Virus record (IMG/VR): IMGVR_UViG_2734482594_000011
Origin: a virus
Taxonomy: Duplodnaviria > Heunggongvirae > Uroviricota > Caudoviricetes
DNA: 5,188 nt
Strand: one strand, 5' to 3'
The notes under the pieces are model-generated. The model was not told where the DNA came from. It saw nothing but the letters and a program-made list of their open reading frames with translations, and searched no databases. Shown here piece by piece: positions 1 to 5,188 of this stretch. A program made the translations under genes and the position numbers. Position 1 is the first letter of the stretch; each line of letters begins with the position of its first letter.

Positions 1-1091
1 GGTCGGTCCTGCACGAATGTCAGCGTCTGCCCGTTCCATACCGGCATACAGCGCATCGCCGAGCAGAAATCACTGAGCACATCCCACGCCTTGCGCTGTG
101 TGGTCAGGTACGCATTACAGGTGATGCGCGGCTCCGTGCCGCCAAAGCCGTCCGGCACTGACTGGTCGCAGTACTGGCCGATGACATACAGCGCCCATTT
201 GTCCACATCCGCCGCACCAAGACGTTTCCCCATGCCATAGCGCGGGTGGGTCAGCATATCCCACAGACACCAGGCCATGTTGTTGCTGTATGCTGGCTTA
301 AACGTTCCGTCCCAGATACCGCTGTATTGCCGCGTCTGCGGGTTATAGTTCGACGGCACCTGCAGAATGCGCCCGCGAAGATGATAATTACGACTCACCT
401 GCTGGCTGCCGAACTGCTCCGAGTCCACCTGTACGCCGACCAGTGCAGTGTTCGGGTAGCACTGTTTCACATCGATGATTTCGGTGTATGACGACCAGAG
501 CGTTTTGTTCTGCAGCTGGTCTGTGGTGCTGTCCGGTGTCATCCTGCGCATCCGGATACTGAACGGGCGCGGAGGCAGGTTATCCACCACCACCGAGACC
601 AGATACTGCGAGGTGGTTTTGCCCTTAATGGTGATGTCTTTTTCCGTCACCCAGCCACCATTACGCTGTATCTGAACCAGCAGGCGGACCTCCGACGGAT
701 TCCGATCCCCTTTTGAGGTGGTTTCCACCAGTGCCTGCACACCGAAGGTAAAGCGCAGACGGTCGATGTTTGCCGACGTGATGGTGCGGGTGATCGGCGT
801 GTCATATTTCACTTCCGTACCCAGCACCGTCTCGGAGCCGGAGGATTCAAACCCCTCCGGCGGTGTCTGCTCCTGCTCACCTGCCCGGAACACCACCGTG
901 ACACCGGAGATATTGGTATTCCCCTCACTGTCCAGCACCGGCGTACTGTTCAGCAGCACGCTTTTTAACCCATCCACCGGACCTTCAATCGGCCCTTCGC
1001 TGATGACATCGATCACACTCAGCAACTGCGTGGATTTCAGGTTGTCCTTCGCTTCACGCGGGGTATGCCCCTTACTGCTGCCTTTACCCAT
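1..1091 (-). CDS. J: Tail tip central fibre / host-specificity protein J, N-terminal ~363 codons; the gene continues past the window start
   Basis: ATG at 1091..1089 (minus) preceded by GGAG/GAGGA Shine-Dalgarno-like sequence. The minus-strand reading frame stays open to position 1. Hand translation gives MAWCLWDMLTHPRYGM at 280..233 and MPVWNGQTLTFVQDRP at 47..1, both of which I recognise as lambda gpJ. Sits immediately downstream of I, as in lambda. Confidence 0.9.
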   Translation of the reverse strand, partial: MGKGSSKGHTPREAKDNLKSTQLLSVIDVISEGPIEGPVDGLKSVLLNSTPVLDSEGNTNISGVTVVFRAGEQEQTPPEGFESSGSETVLGTEVKYDTPITRTITSANIDRLRFTFGVQALVETTSKGDRNPSEVRLLVQIQRNGGWVTEKDITIKGKTTSQYLVSVVVDNLPPRPFSIRMRRMTPDSTTDQLQNKTLWSSYTEIIDVKQCYPNTALVGVQVDSEQFGSQQVSRNYHLRGRILQVPSNYNPQTRQYSGIWDGTFKPAYSNNMAWCLWDMLTHPRYGMGKRLGAADVDKWALYVIGQYCDQSVPDGFGGTEPRITCNAYLTTQRKAWDVLSDFCSAMRCMPVWNGQTLTFVQDR

Positions 1092-1113
1092 TCCTCATGC
1101 TCCATAAACGACA

Positions 1114-1133
1114 AAACCGCCCGCAGGCGGTTT
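1114..1133 (-). terminator. Candidate stem-loop in the I-J intergenic spacer: perfect 8-bp stem, 4-nt loop, followed on the coding strand by a U-rich tract; possible weak intrinsic terminator, attenuator or RNA-processing/stability element
   Basis: Plus strand 1114..1121 aaaccgcc, loop 1122..1125 cgca, 1126..1133 ggcggttt, an exact reverse complement. On the minus (mRNA) strand the stem is followed by UGUCGUUUAU. Function is not demonstrable from sequence alone. Confidence 0.3.
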
Positions 1134-1151
1134 CACATAAAACATGTTCCA

Positions 1152-1823
1152 TCAGCGACCAATCACCACGATTTCACCACCATCACCTTCATCAGCTGTA
1201 CTGATTTCCTGAGATGCCACACGTGACCCCACGCGCATTTCACCGTACAGAACGGGCAGAACATTGCCCTGGGCAACCATGTTATCCAGTGAGGAGAAAT
1301 AGGTGTTCTGCTTACCGTTATCCGTGCTGGTCGCTGTGGGCGTCCGGGCTTTCGGTGCCAGCATCTGCGCCACACCACCGAGCACCATACTGGCACCGAG
1401 AGAAAACAGGATGCCGGTCATACCACCGGCCCCAATGGCTGCTCCCCATGCTGCAAGGGTGGCTCCGGCGGTAAAGAATGATCCGGCAATGGCGGCTGCT
1501 CCCAGGACAATCTGGAATACACCTCCGGGCTTGGCCCCGGCGACTCTGGGAACAATATGAATCACAGCGCCATCAGGCAGAGCCTCATGTAACTGCGCCG
1601 TTAATCCGGACGTGCTGACATCCCGCCCGGCAATCCGTACCTGATACCAGCCGTCGCTCAGTTTCTGACGAAACGCCGGGAGCTGCGTGGCCAGCGCCCG
1701 GATGGCTTCAGCCCCTGTTTTCACACGAAGATCGATGCGGCGGCCAAATCGTTGTAAATCCCCGTAAAGGCAGATGCGTGCCATGCCCGGTGACGCCAGA
1801 GGGAGTGTGTGCGTCGCTGCCAT
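1152..1823 (-). CDS. I: Tail assembly protein I (223 aa): ubiquitin-like N-terminal region plus Gly/Ala-rich hydrophobic C-terminal region
   Basis: Complete 223-aa ORF, ATG at 1823..1821, TGA at 1154..1152. Translation MAATHTLPLASPGMARICLYGDLQRF... is recognised as lambda gpI. Length and position between K and J match lambda. Start overlaps the 3' end of K by 103 nt. Confidence 0.92.
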   Translation of the reverse strand: MAATHTLPLASPGMARICLYGDLQRFGRRIDLRVKTGAEAIRALATQLPAFRQKLSDGWYQVRIAGRDVSTSGLTAQLHEALPDGAVIHIVPRVAGAKPGGVFQIVLGAAAIAGSFFTAGATLAAWGAAIGAGGMTGILFSLGASMVLGGVAQMLAPKARTPTATSTDNGKQNTYFSSLDNMVAQGNVLPVLYGEMRVGSRVASQEISTADEGDGGEIVVIGR

Positions 1824-2464
1824 TTGTCGGTATACCTCTCTCGTTTGCTCAGTTGTTCAGGAATATGGTGCAGCAGCTCGCCGTCGCCGCAGTAAATAGC
1901 GGCATGATTCGGCACCGATGAACCAAAACAGCACAGCAGCACATCGCCCGGCTGCGCCGCTGACAACGGCACCTGATACAGCCCTGTGGCCTCCAGATTA
2001 TCAAGATAGAGATTCTGGCCGTTACGCCACCAGTCATCCTCACGATAAAAGTCCGGCATCTCAATCCCCGCCAGATGGTAAGCGTCCCGGAACAGCGTGT
2101 AACAGTCCGTCACCCCGTGCTCAAAGCGCCGCCCGGTGAGATGCGGCACACAGCGGAACTTGTGAATCGCCCCCCGGCAGACCAGCCACCACGGCAAATC
2201 ACTCTGCACCTGCAGCCGCCGGTCGGCCTCACTCAGCCAGGGCAGACCACCGGGATGACTGTGGACCAGCGCCACAATCTCACCCTGCATTTCTGCCTGC
2301 AGCCAGTCCTCCGGCGACATCCGGAAATAATCCTCCGGCTCACCGGAGATATTCACGCAGGGAAAATATCTTTCCCCCTCCGGCGTTCTCACCACGAAGC
2401 CGCACGACTCCGCTGGCGCACATCGCCGGGCGTGCGCCAGAATCGCTGATTCTGTCTCTGTCAT
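1721..2464 (-). CDS. K: Tail assembly protein K, a two-domain JAB/MPN (JAMM) metallopeptidase-like plus NlpC/P60 cysteine peptidase-like protein; 247 aa if started at MTETES (2464), 199 aa if started at MSPEDW (2320, the classical annotation)
   Basis: ORF is open from 2539 to stop at 1723..1721. ATG at 2464..2462 lies 4 nt after the L stop. An in-frame ATG at 2320..2318 has a GGAGGA Shine-Dalgarno about 10 nt upstream. JAMM-like motif HSHPGGLPWLSEAD (HxH-x7-S-x2-D) is present. NlpC/P60-like signature: Cys in GVTDCYTLF, His in NHAAIY, then LLHH. Recognised as lambda gpK. Confidence 0.85.
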   Translation of the reverse strand: MTETESAILAHARRCAPAESCGFVVRTPEGERYFPCVNISGEPEDYFRMSPEDWLQAEMQGEIVALVHSHPGGLPWLSEADRRLQVQSDLPWWLVCRGAIHKFRCVPHLTGRRFEHGVTDCYTLFRDAYHLAGIEMPDFYREDDWWRNGQNLYLDNLEATGLYQVPLSAAQPGDVLLCCFGSSVPNHAAIYCGDGELLHHIPEQLSKRERYTDKWQRRTHSLWRHRAWHASAFTGIYNDLAAASIFV

Positions 2465-2468
2465 GGGA

Positions 2469-3167
2469 TTACTGCGAAAGTTTGTTAATGGAAAGGAAGC
2501 CGCCAAAGTTGCCGACGTTATTGCGGAACTTACAGCCACTCAGGCATTTGCTGCATTTATCCTTCGTGATATCGGACGTCGGCTGGTCATATTCATCCGC
2601 GACCGCCGGACCGCTATAACCGCACTCATCACCGCGATAGGTCCAGGTGCAGGTGTTGGCCAGCATGATGCGCCCCGGAAAAACAGCACCATCCGTTTCC
2701 GTCGGCGTGGACAACACAAAGGAGGCACTGACCGCGCTCAGTTCGCTGCACTGCTCGACGCGCCAGCGGCTGATCACCTCCTGCTCCGGATCGGCATCAC
2801 TGTTTCCGTTGACGAAATTCACCGCATCCAGAAAACGGGCGTAAACCTTACGCCTGACCACCGTTCCGCCGACCAGACTCTGCAGATCTTCCACCATCCC
2901 GGTGACCATACCGTACAGGTTAGAAACCGTCAGCGTGGGGCGCGTACTGGTGCCTTTGCCATTCAGTTCAAAACCGCTCCCCTGAATGGGATACGCCTGA
3001 TACTGTCGCCCCTGCCAGGTGACCGGCTCACCTTTTTCGTTCTGCTCATTACAGAAAAAATAACGTTCTCCACCGACCTCTGTCAGATCGATTTCCCAGA
3101 GCACCACGCTGGCCGACTGCTCCGCACGGGTGCATTCATTCAGTGTTTCCTGTTGGATATCCTGCAT
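2469..3167 (-). CDS. L: Tail tip protein L (232 aa), with a C-terminal cysteine cluster consistent with an iron-sulfur-binding region
   Basis: Complete 232-aa ORF, ATG at 3167..3165 overlapping the M stop (TGATG), TAA at 2471..2469. AGGTGGTG Shine-Dalgarno-like sequence upstream. Translation MQDIQQETLNECTRAEQSASVVLWEIDLTEVGG... is recognised as lambda gpL. C-terminal cysteines occur in NTCTW, DECGY and DKCSKCLSGC. Confidence 0.92.
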   Translation of the reverse strand: MQDIQQETLNECTRAEQSASVVLWEIDLTEVGGERYFFCNEQNEKGEPVTWQGRQYQAYPIQGSGFELNGKGTSTRPTLTVSNLYGMVTGMVEDLQSLVGGTVVRRKVYARFLDAVNFVNGNSDADPEQEVISRWRVEQCSELSAVSASFVLSTPTETDGAVFPGRIMLANTCTWTYRGDECGYSGPAVADEYDQPTSDITKDKCSKCLSGCKFRNNVGNFGGFLSINKLSQ

Positions 3168-3496
3168 CAGTTCACCACCTGTTCAAACTCTGCGCTGAAC
3201 TCAACACGCAGCATACTGACCCGCGACGACCATTTTGCGCAGGTCACCTTTATCTGCCGCCACTCATAAGGCGGCGTCCACAGAAAGGCTTTCCAGCCCC
3301 CGTGCTCAGCCAGAAACGACTCCAGCGCTGTGGCCTCCCAACGGGGAACAGAAAGCGTCACGCTGTACGTTTTCAGGTCAGCGTTCAGCCCGGCAGGCGC
3401 TCGCTGGGAATAGCCATCACCAAAGCGCACCTTTCTTACGGAAGGGGCCGAAGCCACATCCATACCGGGTTTCACTTTCCAGCGGAAGGTTTTCAT
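3167..3496 (-). CDS. M: Tail tip protein M (109 aa)
   Basis: Complete 109-aa ORF, ATG at 3496..3494 overlapping the H stop (ATGA), GGAGGTGG Shine-Dalgarno 5-7 nt upstream. Translation MKTFRWKVKPGMDVAS...EFSAEFEQVVN is recognised as lambda gpM. Length and order (H-M-L) match lambda. Confidence 0.92.
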   Translation of the reverse strand: MKTFRWKVKPGMDVASAPSVRKVRFGDGYSQRAPAGLNADLKTYSVTLSVPRWEATALESFLAEHGGWKAFLWTPPYEWRQIKVTCAKWSSRVSMLRVEFSAEFEQVVN

Positions 3497-5188
3497 CGTC
3501 CACCTCCGGAGAACAGACCACCATCGCGCATCTGCCCGGTCACAACATCCATTGCCGCCTTACGGGCTACGTCATAAACAGCCTTCAGTGCCTGTGGCCC
3601 TATCTGACCGTTCGTGCCGTCGTTGTTAATCACCACATGGTTATTCTGCTCAAACGTCCCGGACGCCTGCGACCGGCTGTCTGCCATGCTGCCCGGTGTA
3701 CCGACATAACCGCCGGTGGCATAGCCGCGCATCAGCCGGTAGAGATTCCCCACGCCAATCCGGCTGGTTGCCTCCTTCGTGAAGACAAACTCACCACGGT
3801 GAACAATCCCCGCTGGCTCATATTTGCCGCCGGTTCCCGTAAATCCCCCGGTCGCAAAATGGAATTTCGCCGCAGCGGCCTGAATGGCTGTACCACCTGA
3901 CGCTGATGCGCCACCACTGGCAGCACCGCCAATGGCGCTGCCGATACTCCCGACAATCCCCACCATTGCCTGCTTAAGCAGAATTTCTGTCATCATGGAC
4001 AGCACGGAGCGGGTGAAGCTGCGCCAGTTCTGTTCACTGCCGGTCAGCATCGCCGCCATATTCTGTGCAATACCATCAAAGGTCTGCGTGGCTGCACTTT
4101 TAACCTGTGACATACTGTCCGTGGCGCTCTCTTCCCACTCACTCCAGCCGGACTTCAGGCCTGCCATCCAGCTCCCGCGAAGCTGGTCTTCAGCCGCCCA
4201 GGTCTTTTTCTGCTCTGACATGACGTTATTCAGCGCCAGCGGATTATCGCCATACTGTTCCTTCAGACGCTGTTCCGTGGCTTCCCGCGCTGCCTGCCGG
4301 TCAGTCAGCCCCCGGCTTTTCGCATCAATGGCGGCCCGTTTTGCCCGTTGCTGCTGTGCGAATTTATCCGCCTGCTGCGCCAGCGCATTCAGGTGCTCCT
4401 GATACGTGACCTTATCGCCAAGTGCAGCCAGCTGGCGCTTGTACTCCAGCGTCTCGTCTTTATGCGCCAGCAGGGATTTCTCCTGTGCAGACAGCTGGCG
4501 ACGTTGCGCCGCCTCCTCCAGTACCGCGAACTGATTCTCCGCCTTCCACAAATCCCGGCGCTGCTGGCTGATTTTCTCATTCGCTCCGGCATGCTTCTCC
4601 AGCGTCCGGAGTTCTGCCTGAAGCGTCAGCAGGGCAGCATGAGCACTGTCTTCCTGACGATCGCCCGCAGACACCTTCACGCCGGACTGCTTCGGCTTTT
4701 TCAGCGTAGCTTCATAATCCTTTTTCGCTGCCGCCATCAGCGTGTTGTAATCTGCCTGCAGGATTTTCCCGTCTTTCAGTNNNNNNNNNNNNNNNNNNNN
4801 NNNNNNNNNNNNNNNNNNNNNNNNNNNNNNNNNNNNNNNNNNNNNNNNNNNNNNNNNNNNNNNNNNNNNNNNNNNNNNNNNNNNNNNNNNNNNNNNNNNN
4901 NNNNNNNNNNNNNNNNNNNNNNNNNNNNNNNNNNNNNNNNNNNNNNNNNNNNNNNNNNNNNNNNNNNNNNNNNNNNNNNNNNNNNNNNNNNNNNNNNNNN
5001 NNNNNNNNNNNNTGTCGTCTGCTTTCTTAAACGCAGCCTCTGCCTTAATCAGCATCTCCTGAGCGGTATCAGGACGACCAATATCCAGCACCGCATCCCA
5101 CATGGATTTGAATGCCCGTGCTGTCCTGTCTGCCCAGGTCTCCAGCGTGCCCATGTTCTCTTTCAGGCGGCGGGTCTGGTCATCAAAC
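3493..5188 (-). CDS. H: Tail tape measure protein H, 3' portion; the 5' end lies beyond the window end and the ORF passes through the N-masked segment
   Basis: Minus-strand frame is open from 5188 to TGA at 3495..3493. Codons upstream of the listed Met read FDDQTRRLKEN-MGTLETW, so the Met at 5154 is internal. Coiled-coil-like, charge-rich middle (AQEKSLLAHKDETLEYKRQLAALGDK...), Gly-rich hydrophobic segment (VGIVGSIGSAIGGAASGGASASGG) and C-terminus ...MRDGGLFSGGGR are recognised as lambda gpH. Confidence 0.9.
   Translation of the reverse strand, partial: FDDQTRRLKENMGTLETWADRTARAFKSMWDAVLDIGRPDTAQEMLIKAEAAFKKADDXXXXXXXXXXXXXXXXXXXXXXXXXXXXXXXXXXXXXXXXXXXXXXXXXXXXXXXXXXXXXXXXXXXXXXXXXXXXXXLKDGKILQADYNTLMAAAKKDYEATLKKPKQSGVKVSAGDRQEDSAHAALLTLQAELRTLEKHAGANEKISQQRRDLWKAENQFAVLEEAAQRRQLSAQEKSLLAHKDETLEYKRQLAALGDKVTYQEHLNALAQQADKFAQQQRAKRAAIDAKSRGLTDRQAAREATEQRLKEQYGDNPLALNNVMSEQKKTWAAEDQLRGSWMAGLKSGWSEWEESATDSMSQVKSAATQTFDGIAQNMAAMLTGSEQNWRSFTRSVLSMMTEILLKQAMVGIVGSIGSAIGGAASGGASASGGTAIQAAAAKFHFATGGFTGTGGKYEPAGIVHRGEFVFTKEATSRIGVGNLYRLMRGYATGGYVGTPGSMADSRSQASGTFEQNNHVVINNDGTNGQIGPQALKAVYDVARKAAMDVVTGQMRDGGLFSGGGR
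4781..5012. other. Run of 232 ambiguous bases (N): assembly gap or deliberate mask inside the H coding region
   Basis: Directly visible. Spans H codons translated as X (about 78 codons). The flanking real sequence is in the same reading frame on both sides. Confidence 0.99.

Follow-up and report, generated by a model that had tools for sequence, protein, structure and literature searches.

Gene I and its neighbours in the tail-tip block

The window analysed in this work is a stretch of 5,188 nucleotides from a Caudoviricetes virus (IMG/VR record IMGVR_UViG_2734482594_000011). It carries a tail-tip block on the minus strand in the order H-M-L-K-I-J, the same order as in lambda (NC_001416). [quoted passage not shown] The genes of the block are the following.

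3493-5154, minus strand: gene H, tape measure (from coordinates)
3167-3496, minus strand: gene M (Pfam Phage_min_tail, above the curated cut-off)
2469-3167, minus strand: gene L (Pfam Phage_tail_L, above the curated cut-off)
1721-2464, minus strand: gene K, 247 residues, with JAB/MPN+ (PF14464) and NlpC/P60 (PF00877) domains
1152-1823, minus strand: gene I, tail tip assembly/plug protein, 223 residues plus stop (reading-frame list and identity to lambda gpI)
3-1091, minus strand: 5' part of gene J, central tail fibre/hub (Pfam FNIII-A_GpJ, 144 bits, above the curated cut-off)

Gene I starts with an ATG at 1823 and ends with a TGA at 1152-1154. Residue M14 was considered as the true start and rejected, as M1 is preceded at 11 nt by a GAGAGG Shine-Dalgarno sequence and the protein has 223 residues in both the PDB and RefSeq. 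Lambda gpI (PDB 8iyk_I) aligns with protein I from residues 1-223 to 1-223 with about 97% identity (E = 1.6e-136). The end-to-end alignment is obtained with the gpI of PDB entries 8IYK, 8IYL, 8K35 and 8XCG, and the 90-residue chains of 9E7M correspond to residues 133-222. The two proteins share their length, 97% identity throughout, the position between K and J and a 103-nt overlap with K. They differ by about seven substitutions, including S99P in the linker (AKPGG instead of AKSGG) and TAT instead of RIQ at residues 162-164, none of them at a family-invariant position. Lambda-like phages show 95% DNA identity to the gene I stretch, and the H-M-L-K-I-J block is present in 4,539 of 5,426 complete E. 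coli genomes, at a median of three places per genome. Gene I is therefore an ordinary gene copy from a lambdoid E. coli prophage, encoding the ortholog of lambda gpI.

Several observations were made on the flanking genes. The J translation begins with MGKGSSKGHTPREAK, from a start at 1091, and the gene exits through the left edge of the window. A stable RNA hairpin is predicted in the stretch that separates I from J (1096-1146, minus strand; -24 kcal/mol, z = -3.8, no shuffled sequence folding as well), with a GC-rich stem AAACCGCC...GGGCGGTTTT within a longer stem. The 3' arm of the hairpin covers the GGAG that precedes the start codon of J. A simple terminator scan did not flag this hairpin, which could affect mRNA stability or J translation. 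Terminator-like matches inside I and K were treated as chance because they lie within coding sequence. Five cysteines (173, 182, 205, 208 and 212) are found in residues 173-232 of L (2472-2651, minus strand), the region where a [4Fe-4S] cluster has been reported for lambda gpL and F-pyocin PA0638, with four coordinating cysteines in PA0638. Gene H is not completely readable because of a run of 222 N at 4791-5012, presumably masking in the source collection. In the C-terminal region of H (3893-3946, minus strand), a Gly/Ala/Ser-rich stretch, GSIGSAIGGAASGGASASGG, is located upstream of the gpI-binding C-terminal helix. Cleavage of gpH to gpH* by an unknown protease has been reported in the glycine-rich region holding this stretch.

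The K gene and its junction with I comprise the following features.

2171-2455, minus strand: K JAB/MPN+ metalloprotease domain, residues 4-98 (PF14464 Prok-JAB, 52.7 bits)
1793-2134, minus strand: K NlpC/P60 cysteine peptidase domain, residues 111-224 (PF00877, 48.3 bits)
1721-1823, minus strand: out-of-frame overlap of 103 nt between the 3' end of K and the 5' end of I (from coordinates; identical length in lambda NC_001416, 14773-14875)
1785-1823, minus strand: N-terminal 13-residue extension of I, MAATHTLPLASPG, present in lambda-like members only and entirely within the K/I overlap

The preliminary description, which gave no strand for gene I, had named the neighbouring K a JAB/NlpC-P60 protein. 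Both Pfam domains indeed score above threshold, with an intact JAMM site (E19, H68-S-H70-x7-S78-x2-D81) and the NlpC/P60 triad present (C121, H187, H199). In the RefSeq lambda record (NC_001416.1, 14276-14875), K is annotated as a 'C40 family peptidase' of 199 residues starting at the equivalent of M49. The reading frame found here extends 48 codons further upstream (2321-2464, minus strand), starting with an ATG 4 nt beyond the stop codon of L. Since these 48 codons hold E19 and the first third of Prok-JAB, the RefSeq lambda annotation truncates the JAB domain, and automated annotation of the protease-substrate pair could be misled by this. [quoted passage not shown] The I protein of Acba_11, for which the tblastn match covers residues 139-204 only, keeps a weak PF06805 N-domain next to a K that has the JAB domain; it was considered as a possible case of I without the ubiquitin-like domain beside K without JAB, and does not represent one.

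The K/I overlap encodes the 13-residue extension of I and the first strand of its ubiquitin-like domain. It is only 1-17 nt long in three divergent phages, as compared to 103 nt in lambda-like members, so the long overlap is a feature of the lambda lineage. Most divergent I homologs begin at the M14 equivalent, and in the structural model described below the mean pLDDT is 56 for residues 1-10 and 84-94 for residues 11-90.

The ubiquitin-like domain and its tail motif

Protein I belongs to a large family. With clustering at 50%, an exhaustive search gave at least 3,000 representatives, of which 1,377 have E < 1e-10. By tblastn, the protein occurs in 1,733 phage records, which include phages of Escherichia, Klebsiella, Ralstonia, Pseudomonas and Burkholderia as well as cyanophages. 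Conservation was analyzed on 50 full-length divergent representatives with 31-53% identity. Their alignment shows a three-part layout, i.e. a ubiquitin-like domain, a Gly-rich hydrophobic segment and a conserved C-terminal domain, and residues G21, P92, G108, G143, G150 and G194 are invariant. The parts of protein I are located as follows.

1533-1784, minus strand: ThiS/MoaD-type ubiquitin-like beta-grasp domain, residues 14-97 (PF06805, AF2, Foldseek)
1533-1550, minus strand: tail motif P92-R-V-A-G96-A97, equivalent to the PPVxGG/LRGG tail (conservation, profile alignment, pLDDT drop)
1521-1526, minus strand: G100-G101, the Gly-Gly flagged earlier, in a short basic/Gly linker (poorly conserved)
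1356-1520, minus strand: uncharged Gly/Ala-rich hydrophobic hairpin, residues 102-156 (hydropathy, composition, conservation, closed-tip helices H1/H2)
1155-1355, minus strand: C-terminal structural domain, residues 157-223 (9e7m chains, PMC10721106, conservation)

Some database entries depart from this layout. Among P0261 (1,824 aa), P0263 (580 aa) and P0010/P0013/P0015 (344-389 aa, with PF00877 and PF06805), I is fused either to a J-sized protein or to the NlpC/P60 domain of K. Such fusions were noted by Iyer et al. (PMC1779556), and several of those seen here may be frameshifted or mis-called prophage genes resulting from the K/I overlap. The predicted protein P0167 (2,783 aa) contains 23 stretches resembling gpI residues 10-63 (about 41% identity) and is highly repetitive, e.g. 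LRFCTFGDFENLSRRMDLKVFADAIRASIREQL. It was considered as a poly-ubiquitin-like protein and rejected as a low-complexity repeat, probably a translated repeat array.

A ThiS/MoaD-like ubiquitin domain was identified in tail assembly protein I by Iyer, Burroughs and Aravind in 2006, together with a conserved C-terminal glycine, a glycine-rich region, a TAPI-C domain and an adjacent K with JAB and NlpC/P60 domains (PMC1779556). In agreement with this, PF06805 (Lambda_tail_I/TAPI) matches residues 14-97 of protein I with 98.7 bits for a cut-off of 23.8. The preliminary description had likened the N-terminal ~95 residues to a ubiquitin-like beta-grasp domain and proposed structure prediction of I alone as a check. 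The full-length AF2 model built with 30 close homologs was unusable (pLDDT 40.8), and a model of residues 1-105 based on 56 diverse sequences was used instead (pLDDT 81.6, pTM 0.69). It shows a beta-grasp with strands at 13-19, 29-34, 59-64 and 87-93 and helices at 37-47 and 49-57, the pLDDT falling below 50 from residue 98 on. The best Foldseek matches in the PDB are SAMP1, MoaD, CysO, Urm1 and ThiS (E = 1e-4 to 1e-2), followed by SUMO and ubiquitin. The target-normalised TM score is 0.68-0.76 for SAMP1, MoaD and CysO, and 0.59-0.76 when Urm1 and ThiS are included. Sequence and profile searches of the N-domain against the PDB returned gpI homologs and noise only, with no MoaD, ThiS or ubiquitin relative, so the link to the beta-grasp is made through structure. 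With a confident model and these matches, the claim holds, and the N-terminus of protein I is a predicted ubiquitin-like beta-grasp domain.

Residues 89-101 of protein I read HIVPRVAGAKPGG, and the preliminary description had placed a Gly-Gly tail at G100-G101. This is misplaced: the glycine that the family conserves where the domain ends is another one. Among the 50 divergent homologs P92 is present in all, G96 in 48 and A97 in 42, with Ser in five more and Gly in two, so that the residue following G96 is Ala, Ser or Gly in 49/50. G100 is kept in 22 and G101 in 38. From the comparison of G96 (48/50) with G100 (22/50), the conserved glycine of Iyer et al. is G96, within a P-x-V-x-G-A motif. 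Local profile alignments with E. coli MoaD, H. volcanii SAMP1 and ubiquitin, which give weak scores, place the penultimate glycines of these proteins (G80, G86 and G75, respectively) on G96; by the same weak alignments, their terminal glycines correspond to A97. This weak profile alignment agrees with the structural match and with the pLDDT boundary, from which we infer that the scissile bond, i.e. the predicted JAB site, would be the one between A97 and K98. Such a position fits the closed-state lambda model, which starts at residue 101. No published cleavage site for gpI was found in the literature searched.

Compared to the ThiS, MoaD, SAMP, CysO and Urm1 proteins and their JAMM proteases (HvJAMM1, Mec+, Rpn11), the I/K pair shows three likenesses: the predicted fold (target-normalised TM about 0.7), an hhP-x-V-x-G-small motif closing the last strand, and the genetic pairing with a JAB/MPN+ protease whose motif is intact. 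In contrast to these modifiers, which are free proteins, the ubiquitin-like domain of I is the N-terminal part of a structural protein, its tail is G-A and not G-G, it has no E1 partner among the window proteins scanned, and its role appears to be that of a removable assembly block rather than conjugation or sulfur transfer. It could still be asked if the domain is a true modifier, with the released C-terminus being activated and then conjugated to a tail protein or used in sulfur transfer. Its closest structural matches, SAMP1, MoaD and CysO, are activated at a C-terminal Gly-Gly, and Iyer et al. raised thiolation or similar interactions (PMC1779556). However, the window contains H, M, L, K, I and J only, and none of the five proteins scanned by Pfam (M, L, K, I and the J fragment) has an E1/ThiF/MoeB or E2 domain. 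Moreover, the conserved tail is G-A (or G-S) and internal instead of a free G-G, and none of the lambda tail structures has a reported conjugate. We regard a modifier function as extremely unlikely. A muralytic activity of the N-terminal domain, given as a possibility in PMC11101478, has in our opinion a negligible chance of being correct. The structural matches of this small beta-grasp are ubiquitin-like modifiers without exception, and its only invariant or near-invariant residues (G21, L23, G27, L44, P92 and G96) do not constitute a catalytic set. Besides, the domain appears to be removed before virion maturation, and it is K, a protein undetected by mass spectrometry of virions, that carries the peptidase-like NlpC/P60 domain.

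The hydrophobic segment and the C-terminal plug domain

The long Gly/Ala-rich hydrophobic stretch reported earlier immediately after the N-domain corresponds to residues 102-153 and is confirmed here. Residues 101-153 hold no charged residue and 53% Gly/Ala/Ser, with 19-residue Kyte-Doolittle means of 1.1-1.8 throughout. In the 50 divergent homologs the segment is 41-64 residues long, uncharged in 33 and with a median Gly/Ala/Ser fraction of 0.46. Such a segment is thus conserved as a property of the family rather than being there by chance. Its length varies strongly at residues 129-134, and G143-L155 are nearly fixed. Taking the variable stretch as the split, the two helices H1 and H2 would span approximately residues 102-131 and 135-156.

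The same preliminary description had reported a repeated small-xxx-small spacing, which does not exceed what the composition gives: 15 such pairs are found where shuffles that keep the composition give 13.4 +/- 1.9 (P = 0.29), and strict GxxxG motifs number only two. What is conserved is a different spacing. Positions 101, 108, 115, 119, 122, 143, 145, 149, 150 and 152 are occupied by a small residue in at least 80% of the divergent homologs. Five pairs of these are spaced i+7 for 1.2 expected (P ~0.001, or ~0.01 allowing for the number of spacings examined), and for the i+4 spacing there is no enrichment (P = 0.42). A heptad spacing of small residues is suited to the packing of left-handed helix bundles. 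The pattern fits helices around the tape-measure coiled coil better than a GxxxG zipper, and may mark a helical bundle around the C-terminus of the tape measure instead of a membrane zipper.

The structural literature gives a role to this segment, which had been described as not obvious, a view that is now outdated. In the closed state, Ge and Wang resolved lambda gpI from residue 101 on: the hydrophobic helices H1 and H2 lie in the tip lumen, residues 159-175 form a plug, and beta-strands are also present (PMC11101478). After LamB binding, gpI is visible only from residue 167 on, and the helices are released upon receptor binding; their insertion into the outer membrane was proposed (PMC11101478). 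The Ur-lambda work agrees with this description of gpI. The homologous helices of the F-pyocin encircle the tape-measure coiled coil, and two hydrophobic helices are likewise predicted in a preprint on the F7 pyocin. The proposed entry of H1/H2 into the outer membrane is deduced from their disappearance and from TMHMM predictions. The loss of H1/H2 on receptor binding, as well as the docking and the plug function of gpI, has been shown for lambda.

Alternatively, the region could be a glycine zipper (GxxxGxxxG) forming a pore or inserting into a membrane, in line with the preliminary description. With 53% Gly/Ala/Ser and no charge it is long enough for two membrane spans, and TMHMM predictions and proposals of outer-membrane insertion exist in the literature (PMC11101478; F7 pyocin preprint). 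The absence of enrichment of small-xxx-small pairs (P = 0.29, only two GxxxG) and the i+7 (P ~0.001) rather than i+4 (P = 0.42) spacing of the conserved small positions argue against it. In the virion, furthermore, these helices belong to a soluble complex and pack around the coiled coil of gpH inside the lumen. A zipper is in our view rather unlikely, and helices packed on the tape measure would account better for the conserved positions.

The C-terminal domain is well conserved: G194 is invariant in the 50 divergent homologs, and F176, N181, G186, P190, G199 and S204 are nearly so. In the cryo-EM structure of the lambda tail, a gpI trimer (residues 135-223) forms a tripod plug that holds the C-terminal coiled coil of gpH, and strands of gpI insert into gpJ by beta-augmentation (PMC10721106). 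In the present block, gene J encodes the protein that receives the C-terminal strands of protein I. Two other tip plugs can be compared. The plug domain of T5 pb3 has the same lumenal position, is also a trimeric tripod closing the tube and was also proposed to interact with the outer membrane (PMC10721106). It differs in being an insertion inside the hub protein, whereas I is a separate gene, and a ubiquitin-like domain or JAB partner is unmentioned in PMC10721106. The F-type pyocin tip plug (THIP, PA0640, PyoF9; PDB 25vf chain 9 and 9l9p chain A) is closer. It has the three-part architecture and a P-x-x-x-G-S-K tail motif, its N-terminal domain is missing in mature particles, and its C-terminal part plugs the tip and holds the C-terminus of the tape measure. 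However, it is a tailocin protein and not a phage one, its sequence is distant (E = 4e-17 to 5e-20), and the protease has not been identified experimentally.

Probable processing of protein I by K

The preliminary description had suggested a processing or conjugation-like step involving K. The processing part is supported by the literature: release of the ubiquitin-like domain from I by the JAB protease was predicted in 2006 (PMC1779556), and reports have followed. [quoted passage not shown] For the F-pyocin, N-terminal peptides of PA0640 were found in stalled tips and were absent from mature particles, and deletion of PA0639, the gpK homolog, resulted in tip-less tubes (both bioRxiv 10.64898/2026.02.24.707460). 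The conjugation-like part is not supported, as the genes of the window include none of E1/E2 type.

Mass spectrometry of lambda virions detected gpI and not gpK (PMC10721106). The corresponding table lists one gpI peptide with 9.87% coverage and a low score. As 22/223 equals 9.87% and the sole 22-residue tryptic peptide of gpI is 202-223, no peptide of the ubiquitin-like domain was detected, even though this domain holds several good tryptic peptides. This absence of N-terminal peptides is a weak indication because it relies on a single low-score peptide from a protein present in three copies, and the lambda data are, at that level, consistent with removal of the domain. Residues 1-100 are resolved in no structure in the lambda and Ur-lambda cryo-EM literature.

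This could also mean that the ubiquitin-like domain is not removed at all and stays on virion gpI, invisible by cryo-EM because of a flexible tether. The PDB SEQRES records do list all 223 residues, and the coverage of the lambda mass spectrometry is too thin for exclusion. On the other hand, direct cleavage by gpK has been reported (PMC12908700), the F-pyocin N-terminal peptides disappear between stalled tips and mature particles (bioRxiv 10.64898/2026.02.24.707460), the only lambda virion peptide is C-terminal despite the good tryptic peptides of the domain, and both the tail motif and the adjacent JAB are conserved. We therefore hold an uncleaved virion protein to be very unlikely.

The whole reading that we favour, an assembly checkpoint relying on the processing of I by K, is highly probable. 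Full-length I would first join the J/L tip initiator via its C-terminal strands, a docking seen in the lambda structures. The K JAB domain would then cut off the ubiquitin-like domain, as reported for lambda and in line with the N-terminal loss shown for the F-pyocin homolog, and the cut would fall between A97 and K98. Removal of the domain would be the checkpoint admitting the tape measure, gpM and the tube. K and the released domain would leave the particle, in which gpK is not detected by mass spectrometry and the domain is presumably absent. The C-terminal ~125 residues would remain, in three copies, in the tip lumen of the virion, where they hold the C-terminal coiled coil of gpH and close the channel, as shown for lambda. 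Upon LamB binding, the plug would open and H1/H2 would exit the lumen, probably into the outer membrane as proposed. A further function of the K JAB domain can be envisaged, although we judge it quite unlikely: it could also be an anti-defence deubiquitinase that strips host Bil-type ubiquitin-like conjugates from J, and the ubiquitin-like domain of I on the J/L initiator might then also act as a decoy or shield against such conjugation. The deubiquitinase half of this idea was speculated earlier by Hör et al.

The pairing of the ubiquitin-like domain with JAB, the processing and the plug function of gpI are already in the literature, and gene I is a textbook phage gene carried by most E. coli genomes. 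It has little value as a discovery, and its residual value is in the details. The G96-A97 tail provides a precise and testable candidate cleavage site, and the heptad pattern gives specific residues for testing the packing of H1/H2 on the tape measure and their later entry into the outer membrane. The K/I pair constitutes a simple bacterial-virus model of the processing of ubiquitin-like proteins.
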